Positions 5,790 to 40,786 are shown, numbered from the stretch's first letter. The stretch is 53,280 nucleotides of DNA from a virus (IMGVR_UViG_3300042549_001343:1-53280); one strand, 5' to 3'. The notes: generated by a model from the sequence alone, not told the origin. Numbers and translations are program-made.

Positions 5790-6439
5790 GGGTTCCTCAT
5801 CAACTTTACTCGCAAACTTGATCTCACATTGCCACGAGCAGCACGTTGCCTTGCGTCATTCAATCCGGTTATGTAGCGAACCTGATTGAAGTTTGCGGAC
5901 TCAGCATTTGAGTACGGCTTGCCGGGAGTGAGCATGAGTCTCGCCTTTGTTCCGAATCCAAGCGTCTCTCCCCAGATTTCAAACAAGAAGTCTGCAACTT
6001 CTGTCATTGTTCTCAAGGGGACAAGCGCCGCTCTCATTGTAAGGGCGGAAGCATACTTCTGATCCGGTATTGGAAGGATTGTGAACGTGTCGACATCCTT
6101 TTGTGTGTATCCGGCAGGTGGGCCTTTGCTGGCCGTGTAGCCAGCGATACTGGTTCTATAGGCATCTGGTACGCCAATGTCGTCCGGAGCCAGCGGCTCA
6201 AGCTCCTGACCCAAGTACCAGACCTTCATAATCTTCTGGATGCGGTAGTTCTTTGGAGGCTCTAGATCGTAGTCTGTCACGTTCTCGTATACCGTAATCG
6301 GGTCGAGCGTTTCTTGATAGATCAGGCTCTTCTCGCAGAACTCGACAATTGTGTTTCTCAGGGCGCGGATCGCCATGTCTGATGGGCAGCCGGGTACATC
6401 TGGGAGGATCTCTGGCAGGAATGATTCAAGTGTCTTCAT
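5786..6439 (-). CDS. Podovirus head-tail adaptor / tail tubular protein A-like
   Basis: LPDVPGCP...FCEKS N-terminus; position after capsid genes. Confidence 0.7.
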   Translation of the reverse strand: MKTLESFLPEILPDVPGCPSDMAIRALRNTIVEFCEKSLIYQETLDPITVYENVTDYDLEPPKNYRIQKIMKVWYLGQELEPLAPDDIGVPDAYRTSIAGYTASKGPPAGYTQKDVDTFTILPIPDQKYASALTMRAALVPLRTMTEVADFLFEIWGETLGFGTKARLMLTPGKPYSNAESANFNQVRYITGLNDARQRAARGNVRSSLRVKLMRNP

Positions 6440-11582: not shown

Positions 11583-11800
11583 TTTCCGGCCTTCATGCAC
11601 TTGCCCATAGCAGCGCACTTCTTGGGGGCTGGGCAACCGGCGCATGGCTTGAATGCCTTGCCGCCATCCGCCATCTTCATGCTTTTGGCTGAAGCCATCA
11701 TCATTTTCTTGGGGGCTTTTTTGGCTGCGTCTTTCATAACTTTGCCGCCATCTTTGTAGCCTGCGGGGATCATTCCTTTTTTGGCAGTTTTGTTCATCAT
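11579..11800 (-). CDS. Small Lys/Met-rich basic protein with CxxC...C...C tail
   Basis: YKDGGKV and MADGGKA motifs; coupled to the portal gene. Confidence 0.75.
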   Translation of the reverse strand: MMNKTAKKGMIPAGYKDGGKVMKDAAKKAPKKMMMASAKSMKMADGGKAFKPCAGCPAPKKCAAMGKCMKAGK

Positions 11801-13821
11801 GCTGATACTCCTTGTTGAGGTTGAACGGTATTCATAGCAGGAGGCGCTTGGTCTCCGGCTGGGTTTGTTGCTTCGGGTGCTGCAATCTGTTGTTGTGGCA
11901 TTGTGGCTTGTAGTTGCTGCATTGCCATTTCGATCTGTTCTTTTTTGAACTTCATCATCTCTGTCGACGGAACCAATCTGTCGGTGTCCATCTGGAGACC
12001 CATTGCAGTTTCCCGCAACAGATAAGCAGCACCTTCAGGCCCAACGATTTGCAGGGCGATCTGGTTGCTCAAGACCAAGTTCAAGAACTCGTTGCGACGG
12101 ACTTGGATCTGCTCTTTGGCGATCAAGCCCATTGCTCCCTTAGCTACAACCTTGAAGTCACCCTTGATGAAAGGGTCTGGGTTGTAGATCATGTTGTGAA
12201 CGTAGAAGCGGGTGACCACCATCGTGACCACGTCGTCAATGGTTCCGACAGATGTCTTGATTCCCTTGGCGGCATTGTCCATCAGCATGGATAAACCAGA
12301 AGCTGTTCGGCCAGCACCACTTGCACCAGAGCCAGAGCCGTAGATGTAGTTAGGGATACCCGTTACTTCGTCCGCTTGTTTGGCAAACTGGTTGTAGATG
12401 CCCATCAGTTCAGCGGCCTTCATGTCAGGCATGAAGAAGCGAACCCCGGGCTGACCACCACCTGTCTTGTCGGATGTGGTTTGCCAGATCTTCCAAGGAT
12501 ACATCTGGGTAACGTCTTCGCCGTCGGCCAATCTGTCCACGGCCACTTCAACCTGTGGGCCAGATCCGATGCCCATGTTGTTCGCCAAAGAACGTGCGGC
12601 CGCATTGCACATGATCTGCACATCGCGCATGTTCTCGGGGAGGGCTGTGCCCCAGAATGCACCGGGGATAGATCTCCATGAGGCGATCTCGTATGGACGC
12701 TCGCCCAGTGGATCTGGGTTGATGACGGCCTTGATGGTGAAGCTGGCAACTTGCCAAGCATTGATTTCGTAGACCTTGTTGGGATCTATGTCCTTCATTC
12801 CCCACTGGATCAGGAGATCTCCCATCACTGGCCCCCAGAACTCCAATGCTTCGATCAGGTGATCGTTGTGCATTTGAGAATTGGTCTTGCCTTCTAGGTC
12901 ATCTCTCTGTTGGTCGCCGTACTCGTTGTATCGGTAGCCAGCTTTTCCGTAGCGGATAAGGACTTGGTCGATCTCGTCGTCGGAGTATCCGGGTATACCC
13001 TTCATGGATTCCAAGGTAGAGGCCGACAGGCGGTGTCTCTGGATCAGGAAGCCGTCATCCACGCCCATTGAGTTGGCGCTTGGGAAGATGTCGTAAGGGG
13101 AAACCCGAGATACCTCACGAACCATGTCTGTTACGACGATGGGCGTGAAGTCTGGCCCCCACTGGAGATTCTTCTTGCGGCGAACGCTTGGCCCCTTGAG
13201 GATAGCGGTCGGGAAGGTGACGAAGTCGTCGATGAAGTCCTGCATGGCAGGTTTGAACTTACCCTTGTCCAGTTGGTCTTGGATGACCTTGGACATTCTT
13301 TCTGCTGTGGCCTTGGCTTCTTCCTTGACTCGCAAAGAAATCATGTCTTGCACTTCGGCCAGACGCTTGCGGAATGTCTCTGGGTGGAGTTGCTGACCGG
13401 CCATCACGTAGTCTTCAGCTTCTGTGCGGACTAGGTCGATGATGGACATGCGAACTTCTGGCGGGATCTGTGGTTCTTGTGAGGGAACGAGATCGAAAGG
13501 ACGGTCTGCTTGAAGCATCACGTCCTGAATCCAAGACTTGGCAGCGGCGCACTTCACGTCTGTCAGCATCATGTAGATGTCTGAGCCACCAGTGTTGGAG
13601 ATGTCGATGGCTTTATCAGGATCGTATTCACCACGGCGCTGGCGCTCACACTTGAGCAGTCGCTCAGTGATGTCCTGCTTTGCCATCTTTGCTTGAGTCC
13701 AGCAGGAATTGATGTGCCCAGAGATGCCCATTGCGATCAGGTCGGAGTTATCCACGCCTTGTGCTTGGACGGCGCTGATGTCTGCTTCGACTGGCGCTGC
13801 TGCCTGATACACCTGTGTCAT
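11797..13821 (-). CDS. Portal (head-tail connector) protein
   Basis: 674 aa directly after terL; RVSPYDIFP, SGPQV, ADEVTGIP, RTASGLSMLM motifs. Confidence 0.9.
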   Translation of the reverse strand: MTQVYQAAAPVEADISAVQAQGVDNSDLIAMGISGHINSCWTQAKMAKQDITERLLKCERQRRGEYDPDKAIDISNTGGSDIYMMLTDVKCAAAKSWIQDVMLQADRPFDLVPSQEPQIPPEVRMSIIDLVRTEAEDYVMAGQQLHPETFRKRLAEVQDMISLRVKEEAKATAERMSKVIQDQLDKGKFKPAMQDFIDDFVTFPTAILKGPSVRRKKNLQWGPDFTPIVVTDMVREVSRVSPYDIFPSANSMGVDDGFLIQRHRLSASTLESMKGIPGYSDDEIDQVLIRYGKAGYRYNEYGDQQRDDLEGKTNSQMHNDHLIEALEFWGPVMGDLLIQWGMKDIDPNKVYEINAWQVASFTIKAVINPDPLGERPYEIASWRSIPGAFWGTALPENMRDVQIMCNAAARSLANNMGIGSGPQVEVAVDRLADGEDVTQMYPWKIWQTTSDKTGGGQPGVRFFMPDMKAAELMGIYNQFAKQADEVTGIPNYIYGSGSGASGAGRTASGLSMLMDNAAKGIKTSVGTIDDVVTMVVTRFYVHNMIYNPDPFIKGDFKVVAKGAMGLIAKEQIQVRRNEFLNLVLSNQIALQIVGPEGAAYLLRETAMGLQMDTDRLVPSTEMMKFKKEQIEMAMQQLQATMPQQQIAAPEATNPAGDQAPPAMNTVQPQQGVSA

Positions 13822-13831
13822 GGTTTATTCC

Positions 13832-15268
13832 TCATGTCCATGCTTTGCTGGACGCTTTTTTAACTGGTCGTGCCCTCACCTCTACTCTGCCGCTTCGTGC
13901 TGCTAAACAGAGGTACTGGAGTGCATCGTGGGGATGGCTGTATTTGTCTTTGACTGGTCTGTCGCGGTATCTTTCACCAGCAACCTTGAGTCGTTCGTAC
14001 CTGAACCCGCCGAGGAAACCTTTGCGTAGTTGTCGGCAGTTCGGTGAGAGAAGGAACCCCGCTTCTCCCCCAGCCAACTTGTTGAGGAAGTACGCAACAG
14101 ATTCTCTGCGTGGTATGAAATCATTTGTGCTTGCTGGCTCGCTTGCAATTCCGGCCTCTAGTAGTTCTTGGTAGCAGGTTCTCTCATCTGCTTGAGATCT
14201 GTGTGTACCGGCTGGGTCGCCAGCGGAGATGAACCTCATTCCTGAGTAGGTTGTCATCAGGGCTGGTTTCACAATCTCCTGAGCAAACTGTCTGATGCCC
14301 ATGTCTTCGGCCACGAATTCTTCAAGGATGACAAGCTGTCCTCTTGAAGTTATCTGTCCAACAATGCAAGCAGGTGTGAGTCCGAAGTCCCATCCGAGGT
14401 AGAGAGGCAGTCCTCTATTGACTTCAAGCTCTTCTTCGGCGGTGTGGATTCTGTCGTTGTATTCTGGGTAGACCGGCTTGCCATCGGCGGTTGTTCCGTA
14501 CTGGCCGAGGACGAAGACTTTGATCCAGTCGTCCGTCTTGCCTTTGACCATCTTCAGGTAATACTCATACCCTTGAGGAAGATTGAACACATTCTCCGCT
14601 TCTGAATTCGGCTCATACCGGACATCATCGCCCTCTTGGATACGAAGGAGACCACCCGGTTGGTTAAAGAATTCCCATCCTTCGGGGGTGTCTTCTTCTG
14701 CAATTTTGTAATACCAGTGATCGTCGTCAGGCGGGTTGGTATCAAGGATAACGCATGGATGTACGGGGCCGCCGCCGTGAGTCTTCGCGGGGTAACGACC
14801 GATACGCTGAGTGACCATGTTGAAGACTTCATGCGGAACCTCTGAGGCTTCATTGATCCAAGCTCCAGTAAGTTCGAGGGATCTCAGCTTTCCGGTTTCG
14901 GATGCCTTGTCCAGCGCGATGAAGATAACTTCCAAGTCCAGCCCGTTGCCGTCTCCACAATCTTTGATCTTCATGTGGGCGGTGATTGGGGCATCCCACT
15001 TGATCGGGGCAAGTTCATCATTGAACCATGTTTGCCAAGTCTTGATCGTGGTGGACTTGAGTTCGGGATAGGTATTCCGAATGACCGCCCATCTTGCTTT
15101 TCTCCAGCCATTGTGGGGAGTTTGCTTGAGGGAGTGCTTGACGATCTCCATACAACAGGTTGAGGATTTTCCAGAACCTACTGGCCCTTTGATTCCTCGG
15201 ACATCAGCCATTGAGTTGTGGAACTCAGCGGCCACTTGTCCCGGCGGGTTGTATTGGATGACGGTCAT
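13832..15268 (-). CDS. terL: Terminase large subunit
   Basis: Walker A GPVGSGKS, RNTYPEL, AWINEA Walker B, DTNPP, GWDFGLTPA nuclease, HPHDALQY. Confidence 0.95.
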   Translation of the reverse strand: MTVIQYNPPGQVAAEFHNSMADVRGIKGPVGSGKSSTCCMEIVKHSLKQTPHNGWRKARWAVIRNTYPELKSTTIKTWQTWFNDELAPIKWDAPITAHMKIKDCGDGNGLDLEVIFIALDKASETGKLRSLELTGAWINEASEVPHEVFNMVTQRIGRYPAKTHGGGPVHPCVILDTNPPDDDHWYYKIAEEDTPEGWEFFNQPGGLLRIQEGDDVRYEPNSEAENVFNLPQGYEYYLKMVKGKTDDWIKVFVLGQYGTTADGKPVYPEYNDRIHTAEEELEVNRGLPLYLGWDFGLTPACIVGQITSRGQLVILEEFVAEDMGIRQFAQEIVKPALMTTYSGMRFISAGDPAGTHRSQADERTCYQELLEAGIASEPASTNDFIPRRESVAYFLNKLAGGEAGFLLSPNCRQLRKGFLGGFRYERLKVAGERYRDRPVKDKYSHPHDALQYLCLAARSGRVEVRARPVKKASSKAWT

Positions 15269-15546
15269 TCAGGCTTTACAAAATTTGAACCAATCAAGAA
15301 TGTAACATTCTTTGCATCCGTCTCATGCTTGACAGAAGCCAAGTTCGGCAGGGTTTTGTCCAGCAACATTTCAATTGCTTTGATCCGAGCCGCAGTCAAC
15401 TTGGCAGTCCCCTTGCCCAAAGCAAAGTTTTCCAATGTGGTAACCAAGCTCGACACTTGAATTTTTTCTCGGACAGCAACGGCGTGTTCTTCCCGAAGCT
15501 GCTCCCGACGGGCGCTTACTGCCTCAGTAGATTTCTTTGTTGCCAT
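15265..15546 (-). CDS. terS: Terminase small subunit
   Basis: Directly upstream of terL; RIKAIEMLLDKTLPNL motif; RBS GAGG. Confidence 0.8.
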   Translation of the reverse strand: MATKKSTEAVSARREQLREEHAVAVREKIQVSSLVTTLENFALGKGTAKLTAARIKAIEMLLDKTLPNLASVKHETDAKNVTFLIGSNFVKPE

Positions 15547-15563
15547 TGTTTCCTCTTGTAGTT

Positions 15564-15715
15564 GTTGGCTAATCGCTACGTCTATGGGTCATCCCCGCAG
15601 GTACGCCGACAGCATCCGCTTTCACCAACACGGCTGGAGACTGGTCGCTTCGATCTCAAGGCTTGTACTTCGCCCAGATACCAATCTCCATACGTCTTGA
15701 GATGGTTTGACCATC
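15564..15715 (-). ncRNA. c4/CI-like structured RNA with two stem-loop units in the late leader
   Basis: 11-bp stem TGGAGATTGGT/ACCAGTCTCCA; second unit GTTGGTGAAAGCGGATGCTGTC...GACGTAGCGATTAGCCAAC resembles c4-type phage antisense RNA motifs (recalled, not searched). Confidence 0.55.
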
Positions 15716-15772
15716 ATTGGCAGGGAATATACCCAGTTGATCCGCAATATGCAACACCTTTTCTGGCAATTC

Positions 15773-15881
15773 CTGAATCCAGACCTGATCTCAGACACTC
15801 ATTCCAGTAGAGTGGGTTATTGGGTTTATGGGTTATTGGGTTGCATCCTGTTTTCAGCTCTGATTTCAGAACTGATCTCAG
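15773..15881. repeat. Iteron-like array, copy B: 4x TGGGTT (8-bp period) plus 5x CTGnnnnCAG (12-bp period)
   Basis: TGGGTT at 15813,15821,15829,15837; CTG..CAG boxes at 15773,15785,15848,15860,15872. Confidence 0.85.
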
Positions 15882-16449
15882 AGAAAATGAGTATTTTGTA
15901 GAAAAATTTAGTAGCGGTGTTTGTATAGACCCCGTGGTTTTGGAGACTGGTGTAAGAAAAATGAACTTGTTCTTGTGAGTTACCTATAGCTAGAGGCTCG
16001 GGACGCACGTCACGCACGCACGGGCCACGCCACCCCGTCACCCCTGTAGCACCCGCATCGCACGCCGTGCCCACACAGTCCCTCTGGGACAGAGATCGAC
16101 AGATTTATAGGCTCAGAGACCAATTAAACGGTGATTTAGCCCTCTTTAGAGGGATAGGGGTGCATTGTGTGGTGGATTGATCGGGGTAAATGTACGTATT
16201 TCCTACGGAAACGTGCGTGATTTACTGAAACTTACTTTTTCCCTACCCAAAATCTCAATCATTTCAATGCCTTGCATAATGCACGTGTTGACTATCCCTG
16301 CCTATTTATCCCCTATATGAACTCCTATTGGAGTCGTGTATGGGACGCTGTGCCAAAGGCTTTTCCGGCTCAACCTTCGATTCAACCCCAAAACAACACC
16401 TATTTTCAACTTTTTTACGTAGTAATAGGGGTCGAAATGAAAAAAAGAC

Positions 16450-16479
16450 TTGACACAGCATCAACTTTCTGGTCAACTT
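16450..16479 (+). promoter_or_regulatory. Probable early sigma70 promoter
   Basis: Perfect TTGACA at 16450 preceded by an A-tract; -10 box is weak. Confidence 0.5.
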
Positions 16480-16484
16480 CAAAT

Positions 16485-16900
16485 CGTCAATTCGGCAACA
16501 AACCGAAAGCAGACTCAGTAAGTGCTAAAGCACCGTAGGACAGATAGGCTGTGACCCTTCGTAGAAGGGAGTAAGCAAAATCCTTCGGTGACGCTCCGAA
16601 CAAGTCTCTTGACCCCAACGGCGGGATGTAGCGTCGGACTCCGGAGGAGTTGTAACACGGTGGGAACCGTCAACAACACAGCACCGAAGGGTTGGACTAA
16701 GGCTTTGCCTTACTTCTAGAGGCCTCGACTTCATGCAGGTAGCTTCCCTTAAGGAAGAGGTTGCATCGAGCATCGAGATAAACACAGACTTTAGTCTGTC
16801 AACACTCACAGAGTTTCAACGGTATGGCAGTCTCTGACTGCTATGCACTGGACGCTCTGTCCTGTCTTTAGAGGCTCTGCCTCTATTTCGCAACTCACCG
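16485..16900 (+). ncRNA. Large multi-branch structured RNA / early leader
   Basis: Nested long-range helices 16570-79/16704-14 and 16580-90/16682-92 plus many local hairpins; no convincing ORF. Confidence 0.65.
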
Positions 16901-16917
16901 CATTCGAAAGGAATCCC

Positions 16918-18069
16918 ATGCGTGACTCACTCGTTCCCCTCTCCAAGCCCGAAATCCTCTGGATTTTCCGCCACCTCAACGGTGGAACCGTAGGTTTCAA
17001 CTTCGAGACCGTCCAAAAATTGGACTTGATCGACAGATTACTACTGGCCTTCTCTGAAGGACAGATTACCGATGCCATGTCAAATGGTATCCCAACCGTT
17101 AACCCCAAAGGGGTTGCCATCGATGGAGAAAGTCGTCCAATGCCACCTGCCACCAAGCCTTCGGCTCCCAAGTCATCAGACACTGATGCACTGCAAGCCC
17201 TCCGCAACTTACTGTCTCCGACAGTCGACGAAGCAACTGTTCGACAGATTGTTCTCGCCGAAGTCAAGAAAGCAATGGACGATAGTCCAGTTGTCAAAAT
17301 CGAGGTCGTAAGACCTGACGGTTCAGCCCACAAAGTGGAAGGCCACACCAGACCAGAATTTAAGAAAATTCTGACCAGAGCAACTGTCGGTATCAACATT
17401 CTGTTGGTCGGCCCTGCCGGTTGTGGCAAGACGCACCTTGGTCACCAAGTGGCTGAAGCCCTTGGTAGACCCTTTGCCTCGGTCTCTTGCACTGCCGGAA
17501 TGTCAGAGTCAGCCCTTCAGGGCTGGTTGATTCCTTCAGACGGTGGTTCTTTCCAGTACCTTACCTCTGACTTCGTCAGAATGTATGAGGAAGGCGGTGT
17601 CTTTCTGTTCGACGAAGTCGACGGTGCAGACAGCAATACTTTGCTGTTCCTGAATCAGGCTCTCGCCAATGGATCGTTCTTTTTGCCGATCCGGAAAGGT
17701 GCTTCACTGGTCAAACGTCATCCAGACTTTGTCTGTATTGCCGCCGCCAATACCTTCGGTACTGGAGCAAATCAGACTTATGCCGGTCGTGAACGACTCG
17801 ATGAGTCGACACTGGACAGATTCCGTGCCGGCGTCATCTCACTGGACTATGACCAGACTTTCGAAAGAAAGACTGTGGCTCCTGACCTGTTGGCTTGGGG
17901 TTGGGCGATTCGTAAACGAATCAATGAAGCCCGACTCCGTCGAATCATGTCAACTCGATTCCTGCTCGATGCAACGAAGTTGCTCAAGGCCGGTGAGACT
18001 GTCGAGGAAATCAAGGCGACCTTCTTTGAAGGTTGGTCAGCAGACGAAATCAAGAAAGTAGAGGTCTGA
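16918..18069 (+). CDS. MoxR/CobS-like AAA+ ATPase
   Basis: Walker A GPAGCGKT, Walker B LFDEVD, AAANTFG, STLDRF arginine finger; RBS GAAAGGA. Confidence 0.92.
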   Translation: MRDSLVPLSKPEILWIFRHLNGGTVGFNFETVQKLDLIDRLLLAFSEGQITDAMSNGIPTVNPKGVAIDGESRPMPPATKPSAPKSSDTDALQALRNLLSPTVDEATVRQIVLAEVKKAMDDSPVVKIEVVRPDGSAHKVEGHTRPEFKKILTRATVGINILLVGPAGCGKTHLGHQVAEALGRPFASVSCTAGMSESALQGWLIPSDGGSFQYLTSDFVRMYEEGGVFLFDEVDGADSNTLLFLNQALANGSFFLPIRKGASLVKRHPDFVCIAAANTFGTGANQTYAGRERLDESTLDRFRAGVISLDYDQTFERKTVAPDLLAWGWAIRKRINEARLRRIMSTRFLLDATKLLKAGETVEEIKATFFEGWSADEIKKVEV

Positions 18070-28161: not shown

Positions 28162-28832
28162 AGCATTCCTTCGAATTGAATTGATTGGTCGGAGGTTTCG
28201 TCTTCCCACCTACGTTGATTCAGCCACGTACTTGGGAATGGAATGAATTGGCCGTTGTCTTTCAGCCAGTCTGTGGATTGGCGTGACTTCGCAAGGGACG
28301 CAAGCATCTGAGCAAGCACCTCGGCATCCGGATTTATTTTGTTGAAGGACTTCTGTGCCTCTGCCTTGGCTACCTTGCGGGGGTATGCTGACCAGAAGGA
28401 ATCAAACCCCTCGACAATAGGTGCGGGTTTGTGGGTTCTTGGGTTCTTGGGTTTCTGGGTTACGTCCTGAAACGGTTCTGGTTTCAGTTCTGATTTCAGA
28501 GTTTTCTTTTCTATCTTGGCCTTGTTCGCACGTCTGGCCGACTCTGCTTTGCCGTGGTACTTCTCGATCTCGTAGTCACAACGGTCATTCTTCCACCCAT
28601 CATCTGACTGGATGAAGAACTCATGTAGCACACGAGCAACATCATCCGAATGCTCACGCATCGAGATCAGTCGAGCGCAGTCATCTGGCTGGAACGGCAG
28701 TGGCTTTTCTTCTGTGTAGTACACGTCCATCAAACGACGGTACGCCAAATCTTCGGTCAGGCTGAGATGCCTTGTCTTCGTCAGGTAGTCCCTGATATGA
28801 AATTGATAGCTAAACATTGAGTCCTTTCCCAC
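28158..28832 (-). CDS. DUF1376/YdaU-like replication initiator
   Basis: YQFHIRDY..KTRHLS..E..AYRRL.D.YY N-domain; FW.AYPRK..K...P.TWLNQRRWEDE C-domain; iterons in the linker. Confidence 0.85.
   Translation of the reverse strand: MGKDSMFSYQFHIRDYLTKTRHLSLTEDLAYRRLMDVYYTEEKPLPFQPDDCARLISMREHSDDVARVLHEFFIQSDDGWKNDRCDYEIEKYHGKAESARRANKAKIEKKTLKSELKPEPFQDVTQKPKNPRTHKPAPIVEGFDSFWSAYPRKVAKAEAQKSFNKINPDAEVLAQMLASLAKSRQSTDWLKDNGQFIPFPSTWLNQRRWEDETSDQSIQFEGML
28424..28499. repeat. Iteron array (probable replication origin) inside the initiator gene, copy A
   Basis: (C/T)GGGTT at 28424,28432,28440,28448,28456; CTGGTTTCAG 28478 and CTGATTTCAG 28490; same placement as lambda ori in gene O. Confidence 0.75.
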
Positions 28833-29105: not shown

Positions 29106-29882
29106 ATGTCAGATTCAAACAATAACTTCTTGAACGTGTGGAACGCCACATGTACGACCGACCCACGGCACGTCAAATCCTTCAGCCGAGGCGGTGGATT
29201 CTCGGGCACGGCCATCAATCACACGTACCAAATCCGCAAGGCGACCGAACTCTGGGGGCCGATGGGTCACCTCTGGTCTGTCAAGATTGTTGAGCAAGGG
29301 CTGATGCAAGGTACGCCCATCATTGCCGAGGAGATCACCGAGGAGTGGACGCTCGACAGCAAAGGTGAGCGTGTGCTAACAAGACAGGAGATCCGCAAGG
29401 TTGCGGTTGCCAACGAGACCATTCACTTTGTCCGCATCCATCTGACCTACCCAATCTTTATAGAGAACGGGGAGGGAGTGCCGATCCATTCCGGAAACGG
29501 GACGGTCGAACACTTCGGCCAGACCACCTTTGTCGGCAAGAACAAGAACGGCTACTTCACGGACGAGGAGGCCCCGAAGAAATCCTTAACAGATGCTATC
29601 GGCAAGGCTCTGTCAATGCTGGGATTCTCTGCGGACATCTACCTCGGACTGTTCGACGACAACAAGTACGTCAATGATCGCAAGGCTGAAGCAGCCAAAG
29701 CTGGCGCAGCCAAGCCAGAGATCAAGGCCAAGATGACTGCCGAACAGGTGGATGATTTGAAGCGGAGGCTGTCTGAGTGCAAGAGCAAAGAGTCCTTGCG
29801 TGCCCATTTTGCTTTGTTGACCAACGACGAGAGGGCTGTGACAGAGGAGTTCTGCAAGGCGCTGGCAGCGGGGTTGGAATGA
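29106..29882 (+). CDS. Rad52/Sak-like single-strand annealing protein
   Basis: TAIN..YQ...ATE.WGP.G..W and APKKSLTDAIGKALS.LGFSADIYLG; next to exonuclease and SSB. Confidence 0.8.
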   Translation: MSDSNNNFLNVWNATCTTDPRHVKSFSRGGGFSGTAINHTYQIRKATELWGPMGHLWSVKIVEQGLMQGTPIIAEEITEEWTLDSKGERVLTRQEIRKVAVANETIHFVRIHLTYPIFIENGEGVPIHSGNGTVEHFGQTTFVGKNKNGYFTDEEAPKKSLTDAIGKALSMLGFSADIYLGLFDDNKYVNDRKAEAAKAGAAKPEIKAKMTAEQVDDLKRRLSECKSKESLRAHFALLTNDERAVTEEFCKALAAGLE

Positions 29883-30115
29883 CAGATTCTGCCTTAGATT
29901 CACTAAAAATGCAGCTAGACGCTGCAAAAATACAACTGGCCAACGCAACAGTGGACGCTGTAATCGTGGAGGTTGTCTTGCCTATGGCCTACAACATCAT
30001 TGACCAACTCATCGATCTGGACGGCAAGCCAATACCAAAGAAACTTTTGGCCGATGCAAAGAAACTTCTGCCAAGCAACTACAAGAATTCATTTCAGTTC
30101 AAGGGCGAGGCATGA
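29879..30115 (+). CDS. Hypothetical protein
   Basis: ATGA overlaps on both sides. Confidence 0.65.
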   Translation: MTDSALDSLKMQLDAAKIQLANATVDAVIVEVVLPMAYNIIDQLIDLDGKPIPKKLLADAKKLLPSNYKNSFQFKGEA

Positions 30116-30732
30116 ACCCACATCAGAGAACAGATCAATGGTTCAAAGACAGAGAGGGGAAGCTGACGGCATCCTCTTTCGGACAGGCCGCTGGCCTCGG
30201 CCCGGGTTCTCGTCAGCAACTCTGGCGAAGAATGATGGGATTAGAAGAACCGTTTGAAGGAAACCCTGCATCACAATGGGGAGAGGAGCATGAGACTGAA
30301 GCAGTTGCTGAGTACAGCAAAAAATGTGTTGATGACCCTGCGTCTGTCAGTTTGGTGGGGTTCGTACCGCATCCGGAGATGGCTTGGATTGGCGGTTCAC
30401 CCGATTTTTTTGTTGGGGATAAGGGGATGGGTGAGGTCAAGTGCCCGTATTCGCAAGTTGTCTACCCAGAAGTCCCGCCCTATTACATGGCGCAAATGCA
30501 GGGGCTTATGGAAATCACGCAAAGGGACTACTGCGAGTTCGTAGTCTGGACACCCGACGTTATGGCTGTCACAAGGATTGACAGATCGAAGGAGTATTGG
30601 GACTGGCTGCATCTGCGGCTGGCTGACTTTTGGTGTTGGGTGGTAGCCCAAGTAGAGCCACCAAGAGAAAAGAAATCCCAACCACCAAAGCTCGAATTAA
30701 CCGCAACAACTCTTTTCAAATTGAAGGATTAA
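30112..30732 (+). CDS. YqaJ/lambda-exonuclease family recombination nuclease
   Basis: QRTDQW...R...LTAS, GSPD, EVKCP, YMAQMQG. Confidence 0.92.
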   Translation: MNPHQRTDQWFKDREGKLTASSFGQAAGLGPGSRQQLWRRMMGLEEPFEGNPASQWGEEHETEAVAEYSKKCVDDPASVSLVGFVPHPEMAWIGGSPDFFVGDKGMGEVKCPYSQVVYPEVPPYYMAQMQGLMEITQRDYCEFVVWTPDVMAVTRIDRSKEYWDWLHLRLADFWCWVVAQVEPPREKKSQPPKLELTATTLFKLKD

Positions 30733-38800: not shown

Positions 38801-40786
38801 TTTGCCCTGACGGATGCGAGCCTCAAGACCCTGTCCGGCAAGGGTAGTCTGTGCGTAACCACCACTGCGCTTGCTTGTCTCTTTGTCCACAGGGCCAAGC
38901 AGAAAAGTCTCGGCGGCCTGCAATGATGGGAATCTGTTCCCGACCGGGCCTTTGTCTGTCGTGATACCAACCAAAGGCTCGAAGCCCTCTTGTCTGGCGA
39001 CCAAGTCTTCAGGAGACAGGGCGACCGTACCAGCCTGACCGCCGGTTGTTTCTGGAAGGATGACCGGCTGAGCTTCACCTTCAAGGGTGCGTGTCTCCAA
39101 GTTGGGTGTGACGCTGGCTCGCTGGATGACAGGCTCAATTGCGCCAGTGCTTCCACCCACTGCGGTAGAGGCCGTCTCGTCAAATGCAGCGAGGATGTCT
39201 GCCTCACGTTGCTTTCTGGTTTCAGCTCTGACTTCAGGAGTTGGGGCTTCCAATTCAACCAGCATGCGCTGTGTTGCCAAAGCCTTAACGATGACATCTT
39301 GGAACCTTGGGTCATCACCAGACTCAATGTTGTTGGCCTGAAGGATCGGGCCAATTCTTTCGTCGTCGAACATTGCATCGAACAATTCCTGACGGCCATC
39401 GTCAGAAGTCATGTCAGCTTTGGCTTGATCCAGAATCTGTCGGACTCTGTCGGGGGATGTCTTGCCATCTCGGAATGCACCGACCACAGCACCGACCGTA
39501 CCACCGCCCAAGCCACCCAATGCAAACGCATTGATGTACTCGTTCATAGCATCCTCGCCGGTCAGGGTTTTGCCTGCACCGAAACGCTCGATGGCTGTCT
39601 GGAATAATTCTTGGCCGCCTTCGATGCCAACACCAGCCGCGCCACCAATCAGCGCACGACCGGGACGGCCAGCGCCGGGGATATTGATCTTGCCAGCCGC
39701 AACGCCCAAGCCAAGGCGATCAACCGCCGCCTCAGACAGACCGGCAATAACGCCAGAGCCAAAGATGCGAGCCAAGTCGCCGCCATCTAACTCACGGCCT
39801 TCTTTGCCAGCTTGCTCTTCTGCTTCGCCGTAGATACCGCCAGTTGACTTGATGATCCCAGAGCCAGCCAAAGCAGTAGTAGAACCAATGTTCTTTGCCA
39901 CATTCTTTGTGGCTTCCTTCAGCATCACATCTGTCGCCGTATCAACTCCAGCCTTCTCTGCCAGACGAGCAGCTTCCTTGGCAACCATGCCCTCGATGAG
40001 ATTCTTGGCTACGGTTTTGGTTGCTTCTTTTCCAACAGCACCAGCAACAGCACCGCCTACAGCGCCAACAGGCGCGGCAGGGCCAGAGACAGCAGCACCA
40101 GCAAAAGCACCGAGAGCAGACGTAGCTACAGTCTCAACGATGTTTCCACCAAGGTAGCCAACGCCATACTGCGCCCAGTCAACCAGCGCACCAAGGTCTC
40201 CCTGCTTTGCTTTGGCCCAAGCCTTGGTTACATCATCTGTCTCTTTGGCTGTTGCGCCGATCTCTTTCATTCTGGTCTGGTACTCGCTGAGACCAAACTT
40301 CTTGAGGGAGGACATTGAGCCGCCCTCTCCAAAGAGCTTCTCTCCAGCGGCTCCGGCAAATCCAAGTGCGCCGTATGCCAGTGCTGGTGTTTGCTCTAGC
40401 GCTACAGCACCACCTCGCAAAAAGTCGCCGGTATCTTCGGCAGGCTTTGCGGCAACAGGCTCTGTAGATGGAACAGTCATCCCAAACTTAGAGTCAAGGA
40501 TGTTGGAAAGGCTCTGTCTTTTTTCCTGCGGTTGTCCAACATCAGCAGTAGTCTGAGGTGCAGGCGCACTTAACTTTGCGTCAAGGATACTAGCTAATGA
40601 CATCTTCCCATCTGCCGCAGGGACTGGGGCGGCGGATGTAGATGGAGCAGTCAGGGCTGTTCTTGGTGCAGGCTCGAACCCCTTCGACCTTGGAAGAACC
40701 TCGGTGGACAGCGCCTCCTCTTTAGATAAATAAAGAGGGTTTTCTTCTGTTTCATCTAGCCCAAGTAAAGACAGACCTGTTCCCAT
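32834..40786 (-). CDS. 2650-aa polyvalent ejection protein (zincin HExxH peptidase, EIQS/GNAT-like domain, LPD38-like C-terminus)
   Basis: Gly/Ala hydrophobic N-region; GHELVH at 37622-37639 with downstream EEAIGD; LFLEEIQS...APF...LLKRAIAYA; W.RD.FFW.....RIPKPFE.G. Confidence 0.85.
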   Translation of the reverse strand: MGTGLSLLGLDETEENPLYLSKEEALSTEVLPRSKGFEPAPRTALTAPSTSAAPVPAADGKMSLASILDAKLSAPAPQTTADVGQPQEKRQSLSNILDSKFGMTVPSTEPVAAKPAEDTGDFLRGGAVALEQTPALAYGALGFAGAAGEKLFGEGGSMSSLKKFGLSEYQTRMKEIGATAKETDDVTKAWAKAKQGDLGALVDWAQYGVGYLGGNIVETVATSALGAFAGAAVSGPAAPVGAVGGAVAGAVGKEATKTVAKNLIEGMVAKEAARLAEKAGVDTATDVMLKEATKNVAKNIGSTTALAGSGIIKSTGGIYGEAEEQAGKEGRELDGGDLARIFGSGVIAGLSEAAVDRLGLGVAAGKINIPGAGRPGRALIGGAAGVGIEGGQELFQTAIERFGAGKTLTGEDAMNEYINAFALGGLGGGTVGAVVGAFRDGKTSPDRVRQILDQAKADMTSDDGRQELFDAMFDDERIGPILQANNIESGDDPRFQDVIVKALATQRMLVELEAPTPEVRAETRKQREADILAAFDETASTAVGGSTGAIEPVIQRASVTPNLETRTLEGEAQPVILPETTGGQAGTVALSPEDLVARQEGFEPLVGITTDKGPVGNRFPSLQAAETFLLGPVDKETSKRSGGYAQTTLAGQGLEARIRQGKRSKAEGGGTFFFVESRKKPAEVVPTVAPEVTAAAPAAPVETPAATTAKPTKPKKGKAAAPVVAAPAVTAGAQAQPQRAEFTGVVKTNFDTAIDQVGEYASLDEALGAYRQNTIDTLTDNGETDQAVLQQAGDAFDRLVSDYKSKQGETDATQKRQVTKGGQPKREDVGGGLPEVREDRVVTAKEQTGGGETGRGDQPVEGGAKPQEVTPAKPAVDPALQARVKERINKAYEESGLDLEDVVKLSKMVDDGDLAGAVSQMKKTAEDNLGAGAGAKFSMGREQQTTTTGRDFSYAKLKTVDDLNSEVRAYLKRQGSTATFSAKRVPLGDIVGKVPGISAVQRVAALFGKKPIYFAVEEGSVNDFDGAVLSGSDTIFININSSRPHIRIFGHELVHSLRASNNATYRRLVNSLTPLLDQAGMLDYAMVMGKEGVKDPALILEEAIGDIVGDRFGESAFWQMLADDNPTMFEQVARIVMDFIDNVIAKLRGDQSLGSKNLVTDLNAVRRAVADVLGNIQPAAQEAAAQPEAGIQFSTKKEGTETFYSAMERGFESVKQTSMPAQQWKAWLNSNKSKLGIKNAEIEWTGIEEWLDLQESKVEKQTILNWIAGNKVKLNDIILTDNPSVALPEYKDPTEEDYREFVRDEMEKHYDYIGIVDAQYEDENPQWFIDPDSLTGEEAKQWIKDNASLVRFNREHIRGYERSLARAKDRLTAKYNRPTGSMPTVLPGGRDYAEIILTDPSIQPYKEEDTIHFGDLAYGKHIGWLRTNVRKDAEGNDVLFLEEIQSQRAQEGREQGFADSKRTELPAGFEVYKDEKNGWYVFDESARRQVGLYGNTKEEAIKSALGVGVPEAPFIKDTKSWASLLLKRAIAYAQTKGIDRVAWTTGDQQNQRYRLSKAVDEIYYDAYEDGKTYEITAVKDDMEIMQGSGKMDLDTIRRTYGKDIAKMIADDVGEIGGGARVIRGEQLDIGGAGMREFYNTIVPSVAKTIAGKDSVKVMEIDGTGQQLGFVIPESLQEQVANDGFPMFSRKRYEEQFSDVSPDTRDRALKKGFYSPPTIKERLDHLRPNFALRIVQGTFDKFRSVRDISQKAYMMLRMSTGSQDGAVSTLLHYGQVFNDDGALNVKKGTQGLLEILDPVGGEVDRFLLWIAANRAAALSKDERERFFSPEDIKSLRGLNMGTMKNGKSRLAIYAETLKNMNELNRSVLDVARDTGLIDAEGYKRFAADIWYIPFYRQMEDDGSLSAAQTSSGAVGQYLSKKLKGSERPLNDLMENVLMNWTHILSASMKNQAAVETLTSATQMGDVVTKLERQEKGAVKVMEKGVETFYRIDDEFLLTSLSAVAQMPSYGWGMDIMRGFKTTLTRFISLSPTFKINNLIRDSIQSIGLSELSRSPIGNVLQGWRAYKNERAEALAGGGLFAMGNAFDGDQSASVKRLLKTGVNKADILDTPEKVASFFGKIQDKYDEISDASENANRLALYQQLRAKGASHLEASYAARDLQDFSLQGSYSAIRYAAQVLPYFNARLQGMYKLGRDGLDPTMQVLTGKASDTERQKAAKFATVTGAVVAAAMILYLSQKDDEDWKKREDWDRDAFFWFKLPGTDKAVRIPKPFEMGAIATLVERVTEQMVDSQVEGKVFGKRLLAVLHDTFAVNPIPQAIRPLYDIARNKDGFTDRPIESMGMERISVENRVSPGTSAAAVAISTVNGMFAEFASKATGGAISTQSSQLSAIQYDYMIKGYLGWVGSVIQTSSNMMAAPFKDGASSRYERIDDFLVVGNFVKTVPQAQSRYVTSFYENSKDVATASADVSHFLNAGQFDKANEIYIEKSDKLALAKLYTKGTNMMSSISNQIKMVEDDKTMSGAEKRLEIERLQQVRIQIAKSVEDMRVGSKKKFADGGVVKFDPESEDYDYDTAVSAGLGPDGKDENAGHWGSVTKASAEDKKKYGLPDGSYVVLKGRKHETWDKAEEAERERGSEIVKMGDRYYSVPKK
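38179..38355 (-). CDS. Overprinted 58-aa basic protein (MPLKKGKSQKVVSQNV...QAVAISLSKAGRSRKK)
   Basis: Strong RBS AAGGAG 6 nt before the ATG; resembles a widespread small phage protein family; alternative frame inside the giant gene. Confidence 0.8.
   Translation of the reverse strand: MPLKKGKSQKVVSQNVKTLVGDFQKSGKIGSSQPKNKQAAVKQAVAISLSKAGRSRKK

Follow-up and report, generated by a model that had tools for sequence, protein, structure and literature searches.

Two RNA hairpin units in a phage terminase leader belong to a widespread, unnamed family with conserved stems and swappable insides

Structured RNAs cut out of longer transcripts are known from phages. The C4 RNAs of P1 and P7 and the CI RNA of P4 are released by RNase P thanks to a tRNA-like helix, and the processed P1 C4 and P4 CI RNAs act through two short pairing segments. 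Modular exchange has been described for a different kind of element, the PeSLs, which are promoter-plus-terminator motifs flanking protein genes. In T4-like phages, PeSL mobile cassettes are proposed to spread and be swapped through short homologies (PMC2839356, PMC4122927). At a larger scale, a catalogue built from IMG/VR holds 8,495 candidate structured RNAs, including tRNA-like and upstream-of-terminase candidates (PMC10690425).

Here we analyse positions 15564-15715 of a 53,280-bp IMG/VR virus record (completeness estimate 96%), the whole of which is referred to below as the window. The stretch is an untranslated leader between a promoter-like block and a gene in the position of terS, and consists of a hairpin followed by two cassettes. 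Both cassettes come from a widespread, unnamed family of hairpin RNAs in phages, in which stems are conserved and insides can be swapped, and the arrays that such units form belong to none of the described families tested.

Structure and setting of the leader

A podovirus-like, lytic phage is suggested by the remaining genes of the window, which include a portal and an adaptor of SU10 type and an LPD38 protein of 2650 aa. The 93-aa gene that follows the leader has no match in Pfam or PHROG and is named terS by position only; it is kept upstream of the large terminase gene (TerL) in relatives. Across the 76 ORFs scanned against Pfam, 12 of which were also compared with PHROGs, no antirepressor-type family was found, nor did the window show a reverse transcriptase, an integrase or a gene resembling Cas or ToxN; the stretch precedes packaging genes. 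On the upstream side, a block containing TTGCAT-N17-TATATT and the first hairpin is shared by the window and 17 relatives with at most 7 mismatches in 36 positions, and it is solely from the conservation of this block that we infer a promoter. A promoter scan of 15200-16900 returned no sigma-70-type site at threshold; the block went unlisted because its hexamers fit the consensus at just 8 of 12 positions. Just upstream of the block, CTGA-N2-TCAG dyads at 15773-15794 and 15872-15881 (minus strand), with similar stretches at 28431-28500 and 39208-39237, may be regulator binding sites.

Folded as RNA, the minus strand forms the small hairpin and then two stem-closed units (MFE -59.2 kcal/mol, z -2.06, equalled by 5 of 200 shuffles), and the fold of the plus strand is weaker (z -1.21). 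The two paired minus-strand units described in an initial annotation of this DNA were thus confirmed by folding, and their helices are backed by comparison with relatives. Unit 1 is closed by helix A and unit 2 by helix B (Table 1). The last four bases of the 3' strand of helix A also belong to helix B, and the resulting junction motif, in which the 3' strand of helix A abuts the 5' strand of helix B, has one match in the window (15643-15623, minus). In the window, helix B pairs GTTGGTG with (T)AGCCAAC, followed by A, so that the unit is closed by an acceptor-type helix of 7 bp with an unpaired purine on its 3' side. The cassette RNA would probably be made from the late transcript, on the terS strand.

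Table 1. Features of the leader and of its neighbouring genes, in window coordinates
Feature	Position	Strand	Basis or remark
Portal gene	11797-13821	minus	
Large terminase gene (TerL)	13832-15268	minus	Pfam Terminase_6N and PHROG 2
93-aa gene in terS position	15265-15546	minus	ORF; 4-nt overlap with the TerL start
Shine-Dalgarno-like AAGAGGAA of the terS-position gene	15550-15557	minus	sequence; kept in relatives
Helix B 3' strand TAGCCAAC, then unpaired AAC	15564-15571	minus	fold
Unit-2 conserved 3' part GACGTAGCGATTAG	15569-15582	minus	alignment
Unit-2 variable top, 27 nt, containing both proposed antisense blocks	15583-15609	minus	varies in length and sequence across the family
Unit-2 conserved 5' part AAAGCGGATGCTG	15610-15622	minus	little or no variation across 15 aligned members of the family
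Helix B 5' strand GTTGGTG, tRNA acceptor-like	15623-15629	minus	fold
Helix A 3' strand CAGTCTCCAGCCGTGTTG	15626-15643	minus	covariation; junction motif used for collection scans
Unit-1 inside (cargo), 38 nt, containing the 14-mer shared with the giant gene	15644-15681	minus	wholly different between relatives
Helix A 5' strand CAAGACGTATGGAGATTG	15682-15699	minus	fold; covaries with the 3' strand
Small conserved hairpin GATGGTCAAACCATC, start of the leader	15701-15715	minus	fold; in relatives, including the cassette-less L013 and L004
-10-like hexamer TATATT	15726-15731	minus	sequence; 17 nt past the -35-like hexamer
-35-like hexamer TTGCAT of a putative late promoter	15749-15754	minus	sequence, conserved block

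A coding reading of the stretch was rejected. Two ORFs overlap it, one of 58 aa on the minus strand (15622-15798, no Pfam or PHROG match) and one of 82 aa on the plus strand (15562-15810), and coding frames are not maintained beyond the promoter block in relatives; a peptide-like frame (…LPEKVLHIADQLGIF…) within the stretch is interrupted by stops.

Small shares of the region occur in three sequencing runs, as part of the terS-position gene in one and as 15625-15691 and 15625-15695 in the other two; the rest of the stretch is not covered by any of the three, and no raw-read RNA run contains the stretch. The sole match in an RNA library is one 151-nt contig, which shows no ends, strand or level and is no proof of transcription.

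Conservation, exchange and spread of the cassettes

Helix A, in which CAAGACGTATGGAGATTG pairs with CAGTCTCCAGCCGTGTTG, has about 16 pairs, a near-fixed 2x2 internal loop and one U-G pair, and the window halves (15699-15682 and 15643-15626) fit the family consensus. With a CAAGA/GTTG extension it reaches about 18 pairs with an internal loop. Across 18 leader units from TerL relatives, the 16 pairs were 96.2% paired, a percentage inflated because the units had been preselected at 14 or more of 18 complementary positions (two stray matches were removed). This preselection does not explain the compensatory changes: 8 of the 16 pairs changed on both sides, which none of 500 shuffles reached, and slid registers paired just 36-43% of cells. 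Among 163 distinct A units found by motif, G-U cells outnumbered A-C cells by 178 to 17, which argues for pairing in RNA of the terS strand and not in DNA. The sequence of helix A is conserved more than pairing requires, and this excess could mean that the helix also has to fit some further partner (RNase III or a protein of the phage, for example).

Helix B in the family pairs GTTGGTG with (C)ACCAAC over 7 bp, followed by unpaired A-ACC/ACU. An exact CCAAC lies 15-215 nt past the junction in 113 of 149 distinct junctions, versus 23% of control windows, and continues as AACCT in 38 and as AACTT in 13. A search for fully complementary 7-mer partners was discarded as non-specific, the reversed decoy having found a partner in 131 of 165 cases.

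A TerL-based scan yielded 80 loci, in 22 of which the upstream region aligns with the window, and the leader stretches compared (from the start of the block to the terS start plus ~14 nt) span 160-531 nt. Close relatives carry 0-4 units per leader, with identical insides in differing combinations; the ends of a unit are conserved, and its inside may differ completely between phages. In L013 and L004, whose TerL proteins are 97% and 99% identical to that of the window, the first hairpin is joined directly to the ribosome-binding site with no cassettes between them. The cassettes are thus accessory and shuffled between phages. Of the paired scaffold with a variable loop described in the initial annotation, the scaffold part stood, with stems kept and covarying around insides that are wholly different at 92-99% TerL identity; the view of the loops as guides did not (see below).

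Three further features of these leaders were observed. Many relatives have a contig end within the terS leader or immediately upstream of it (L004, L006, L010, L028, L032, L035, L036, L038, L040, L043, L045, L047, L055 and others), perhaps because assembly breaks at a spot that varies between strains and bears repeats, or because the genome physically ends there. More distant TerL relatives (leaders of L028-L064) have a different conserved element of ~85-95 nt in the same leader position (AGCGG..GGTGAG..AAC..CCGCAG..GTGTCTCC..CTGA..CCCACGnCACGGG; e.g., L039:936-1015 and L042:3420-3502). A pattern search returned 17 matches to it, representing 14 distinct sequences. The window does not contain the element, and no Rfam family matches it. 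Finally, in L079 and L083, the most distant terS relatives, the place of the cassettes is taken, as judged by eye, by an extra ORF and a sequence that looks like a tRNA with CAU in its anticodon loop, ~300-350 nt upstream of terS.

From 180 A units and 168 B units we obtained 156 and 152 distinct insides, and the 306 distinct insides of at least 15 nt fell into 218 clusters, 163 of them singletons, with the caveat that B boundaries follow a loose pattern and that 17 A units were read from both strands. The unit-1 inside of the window is a singleton in this set; contigs from two public runs contain unit 1 and its inside again, with 1-3 differences, and have other sequence beyond 15625. Unit 2, in contrast to a genome-specific element, recurs in L189 with 71 of 72 positions identical; there it immediately follows the gene of a different TerL, and a tRNA-Met gene starts 7 nt further on. 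Its conserved part AAAGCGGATGCTG was found, at no more than one mismatch, in the window and nine loci among 81 sources (the window and L004-L083), one of which, L032, has its copy outside the leader.

Two inside families were resolved further. The unit-2 family (GAAAGCGGAUGCUG ... GUAGCGAGUA; 15 members aligned) has invariant internal loops GAAA/GAGUA and GGAUG/CGUA, outer and inner stems (P1, P3) that covary, and a variable top, and it also occurs under other closing stems, e.g., GGGGG/CCCCC. The second, of 30 sequences, has a loop GGGUUAGCGCC identical in 30 of 30, a loop CUGCUUUAUG at least 90% conserved, stems with 7-15 double-sided changes and no Rfam match; its members sit within helix A, helix B or other stems (e.g., L088:4216-4306(-) and L005:961-1048). 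Invariant loops combined with covarying stems indicate that these insides are selected structured RNAs, neither filler nor target-derived spacers. An inversion of cargo was also considered, since 13 reverse-complement pairs were found across loci. The six examined were reads of a near-symmetric helix from both strands, and none was a true inversion.

Mobility of this kind would require no benefit to the phage if the helix halves were mainly short DNA homologies through which cassettes spread and are swapped in co-infection. Such a selfish or recombination-based origin fits the presence, absence and reshuffling of cassettes among close relatives, the occurrence of the same cassette in unrelated contexts, the helix sequence kept beyond the needs of pairing and the contigs of many relatives that end at or near the leader. 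It is, however, at odds with the excess of G-U over A-C cells and the compensatory changes, which mark selection on RNA pairing, with insides that are conserved structured RNAs, and with the lack of true inversion in the 6 of 13 reverse-complement pairs examined. We consider it quite unlikely, and note that it can coexist with a reading in which the host processes the cassettes into small RNAs.

Beyond the TerL relatives, the A/B junction (a pattern of 19 positions, 17 of them specified) occurs in at least 119 IMG/VR stretches, and the full module architecture was visible in the 34 junction contexts inspected. A relative of the TerL of the window is present in only 6 of the 119 listed stretches, 5 of these with its terS-type gene. 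In the genomes of 185,579 species, the pattern was found in 42 stretches, 4 of which have the helix A partner: three uncultured Burkholderiales bin contigs of 1.8-3.4 kb and one Flavobacterium bin contig of 2.3 kb. We attribute the other bacterial matches to chance, because by our own arithmetic ~100 chance matches are expected. No cultured phage with arrays was found among GenBank phages, where window positions 13800-17000 match just 93 nt of a TerL gene; a two-unit array from L095 matches 40 nt of one uncultured GenBank record, in an unannotated gap. Rfam comparisons of the modules of the window, 10 TerL relatives and 11 array loci returned no family match other than one tRNA (see below), the other matches being weakly int-alpA-like or a short tmRNA 3' fragment.

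A same-strand ORF starts within 600 nt past the last junction in 86 listed loci, and in 28 of them it is a terS-position gene. These terS-position genes represent three unrelated families, namely PHROG 1482, an unnamed 131-aa family that adjoins another TerL type, and the type found in the window. In 33 of the 119 listed loci a TerL gene of one of two other types is found downstream, so that arrays accompany three TerL types (the family of the window and clusters 0 and 2). Arrays are also found after a TerL gene, before promoter-like sequence (by eye) and within tRNA clusters. The 28 of 86 arrays directly upstream of a terS-position gene could point to a role tied to packaging or to the operon, and two alternatives follow this line.

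As DNA, the inverted repeats upstream of terS could belong to a pac or cos site to which terminase binds. Their place directly before terS-position genes in 28 of 86 listed loci and upstream of TerL in 33 of 119 would suit such a packaging signal. The same helices are nevertheless found with three unrelated terS-position families and three TerL types, are missing from L013 and L004, and in L189 stand after TerL; the strand asymmetry of G-U pairs, moreover, points to RNA. A packaging signal is on this evidence very improbable.

Alternatively, the hairpins could act in cis, affecting their own transcript only, for example as processing sites of the RNase III type, as stabilisers of the 5' end or by tuning translation of the terS-TerL-portal operon, with insides that are tolerated filler. 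The array of the window does lie between a promoter-like block and a ribosome-binding site, the arrays that precede terS-position genes (28 of 86 listed) do so with three unrelated families, and helix A, with ~18 pairs and an internal loop, resembles phage RNase III sites. Against this, the near-identical phages L013 and L004 lack the array, which implies that the operon can do without it; arrays also stand after TerL, before promoter-like sequence (by eye) and in tRNA clusters; and the invariant loops and covarying stems of the insides are unlike filler. We regard a purely cis-acting leader as unlikely.

Proposed antisense pairing of the loops

The initial annotation had interpreted the stretch as a c4-like RNA with two antisense blocks in its second loop, directed against a single-strand-annealing protein (SSAP) gene, and with a 14-mer in its first loop shared with the giant gene. 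All six strings quoted in its support were found at their positions. The proposed target at 29106-29882, there called Sak-like, has no Pfam match and carries an exonuclease label in PHROG; the gene that follows it (30112-30732) is a YqaJ-type exonuclease, and by position only, a single-strand-annealing role of the former is plausible.

Neither match stood out from the background. The 152-nt region has 27 two-block (8+9) matches elsewhere in the window versus a random mean of 24.3, in a control of 1500 random segments, every one of which had at least one such match. Shorter random segments also had 8+9 matches, at a rate of 4.3% for a length of 24 nt (4000 segments) and 18.3% for 34 nt, and ATGGGTCA is present six times in the window. 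The best complementary run of the unit-2 top was reached by 44 of 200 shuffles with Watson-Crick pairs and by 179 of 200 with G-U pairs allowed. The 14-mer shared with the giant gene is likewise at chance level, given that an exact word of 14 or more is repeated elsewhere in the window for 11.4% of 3000 random 152-nt segments, and, as the initial annotation had remarked, it has the same sense as the giant gene's mRNA. For the 38-nt inside of unit 1, a 14-nt Watson-Crick run was found in only 4 of 200 shuffles; with G-U allowed, the observed run of 15 was reached by 84 of 200.

Nor did comparison with homologues reveal loops that follow a target. The unit-2 type of the window is also present in L021 and L020, whose SSAP-like genes are 81% and 79% identical to 29106-29882. 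Their variable tops differ from that of the window, as do the two proposed target blocks in their SSAP-like genes, and the longest antisense match of the loop to the phage's own SSAP-like gene is 7 nt in L021 and 6 nt in L020. A genome-specific guide is also contradicted by L189, in which unit 2 is nearly unchanged, and its variable top fully identical, next to a different TerL. Membership of a C4 family received no support from Rfam, which gave no match at gathering score across the whole window; at E values up to 10, the region 15300-16300 produced four weak rows, none of them C4.

A processed antisense RNA of the C4 or CI kind, pairing in two blocks with the SSAP-like mRNA or serving as a guide against other phages, has in its favour that the quoted strings exist, that the acceptor-like helix B is compatible with RNase P processing as in P1 C4, and that the 14-nt Watson-Crick run of the unit-1 inside is uncommon among shuffles. 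It has against it the missing Rfam C4 match, two-block matches at the random rate, a 14-mer that is ordinary for the region and in the sense orientation, loops of relatives that do not track their SSAP-like genes, and the near-identical unit 2 of L189. Because the matches are at chance level, because L021 and L020 show no tracking and because of the L189 copy, the guide reading fails, and we find the model as a whole barely credible. The practical outcome is negative for the proposed regulation of a recombination gene by this stretch.

Proposed processing and comparison with known systems

Helix B resembles a tRNA acceptor stem, and in only one of 11 loci scanned, a B unit (L109:4108-4220(-)) scores as an Rfam tRNA (RF00005, 34.3 bits against a gathering score of 29), with helix B aligned as the acceptor stem and a 49-nt insert in the D loop. 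In L159, ARAGORN called a unit itself (6068-6140(-)) a tRNA with a 4-nt anticodon. The units of the window are not tRNAs, with no ARAGORN tRNA gene and no Rfam tRNA row, and the 3' flank of a unit is ACC or ACU, not CCA. T-arm-like hairpins were rare: 7 of 152 B insides had one, as did 7 of 156 A insides, with 0 and 3 in the respective reverse-complement controls. ARAGORN detected tRNA genes in 13 of the 119 listed loci, all on the array strand and at most 221 nt away; tRNA-Met(CAT) is present in ten listed loci and starts 5-9 nt past the last unit in the four where the unit end was mapped (L118, L173, L187 and L189). Arrays thus occupy tRNA-gene neighbourhoods as well as late-operon leaders.

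Taken together, we propose, with a probability of roughly 45%, that the cassettes are scaffolded small structured RNAs excised by host tRNA-processing enzymes. In this scheme, the array would be transcribed together with its neighbours from the conserved block, and the acceptor-like helices would be cut by host RNase P on the 5' side and by RNase Z or RNase E on the 3' side, which would release stable small RNAs. The released RNAs would then work in trans: the conserved loops of the insides would bind a protein or an RNA, or decoy one, with no antisense pairing to the phage's own genes. Against this scheme speak the units of the window, which neither ARAGORN nor Rfam recognises as tRNA-like, the single B unit scored as a tRNA, the scarcity of T-arms and a 3' flank other than CCA. 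The excess conservation of helix A noted above is not accounted for by such tRNA-type processing.

A bolder reading, which we hold to be doubtful, is that phages infecting freshwater bacteria (probably Burkholderiales) carry a library of small aptamer-like RNAs, shuffled by horizontal transfer and matured by host tRNA-processing enzymes; two standard helices would close these RNAs, one with its origin in a tRNA acceptor stem. The tRNA-gene slots and late-operon leaders would be the sites of this library, the two units of the window would be two of its RNAs, and the whole would be an RNA counterpart of protein accessory or anti-defence islands, in which each inside binds or decoys a different host or defence factor.

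If excision by host enzymes is correct, phages make many small structured RNAs with two standard helices and the tRNA-processing machinery of the host, need no enzyme of their own for this, and can trade the RNAs as gene cassettes. The arrays would then represent a large unannotated class of phage non-coding RNA, with at least 119 stretches, hundreds of insides and no Rfam family. Candidate RNA decoys or aptamers of natural origin would be found in the recurrent insides, and candidate expression scaffolds in the helices.

A literature search, limited in scope and terms, found no description of such arrays. The IMG/VR catalogue of candidate structured RNAs draws on the same data source, and single modules may already be numbered in it; the words 'array' and 'tandem' occur 0 times in its main text (PMC10690425).

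Among described systems, the C4 RNAs of P1 and P7 and the CI RNA of P4 share with the cassettes the situation of a structured phage RNA within an operon transcript, and helix B is here acceptor-like. Unlike C4 and CI, the cassettes have no covariance-model match, no supported two-block target and no immunity or antirepressor context, and they are modular and exchangeable. The analogy to C4 would thus be partly vindicated, for processing only, provided that C4 maturation proceeds as outlined at the outset. With phage tRNA clusters (RF00005), the arrays share a 7-bp closing helix and an unpaired 3' A, and they adjoin same-strand tRNA genes in 13 of 13 listed loci with tRNAs. Unlike tRNAs, the units of the window are devoid of D, anticodon and T arms, nothing in a tRNA corresponds to helix A, and the insides comprise hundreds of unrelated structures. 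As in CRISPR arrays and ToxI repeats, conserved and variable segments alternate in one transcript in a setting of phage-host conflict, a likeness by analogy only: the conserved parts are here inverted halves and not direct repeats, and the variable parts are structured and not target-derived. The arrays also recall PeSLs, which have a short conserved border motif and show insertions, deletions and swaps among close relatives (PMC2839356, PMC4122927). Unlike in PeSLs, the two halves of the border pair here as RNA, around insides that are non-coding.
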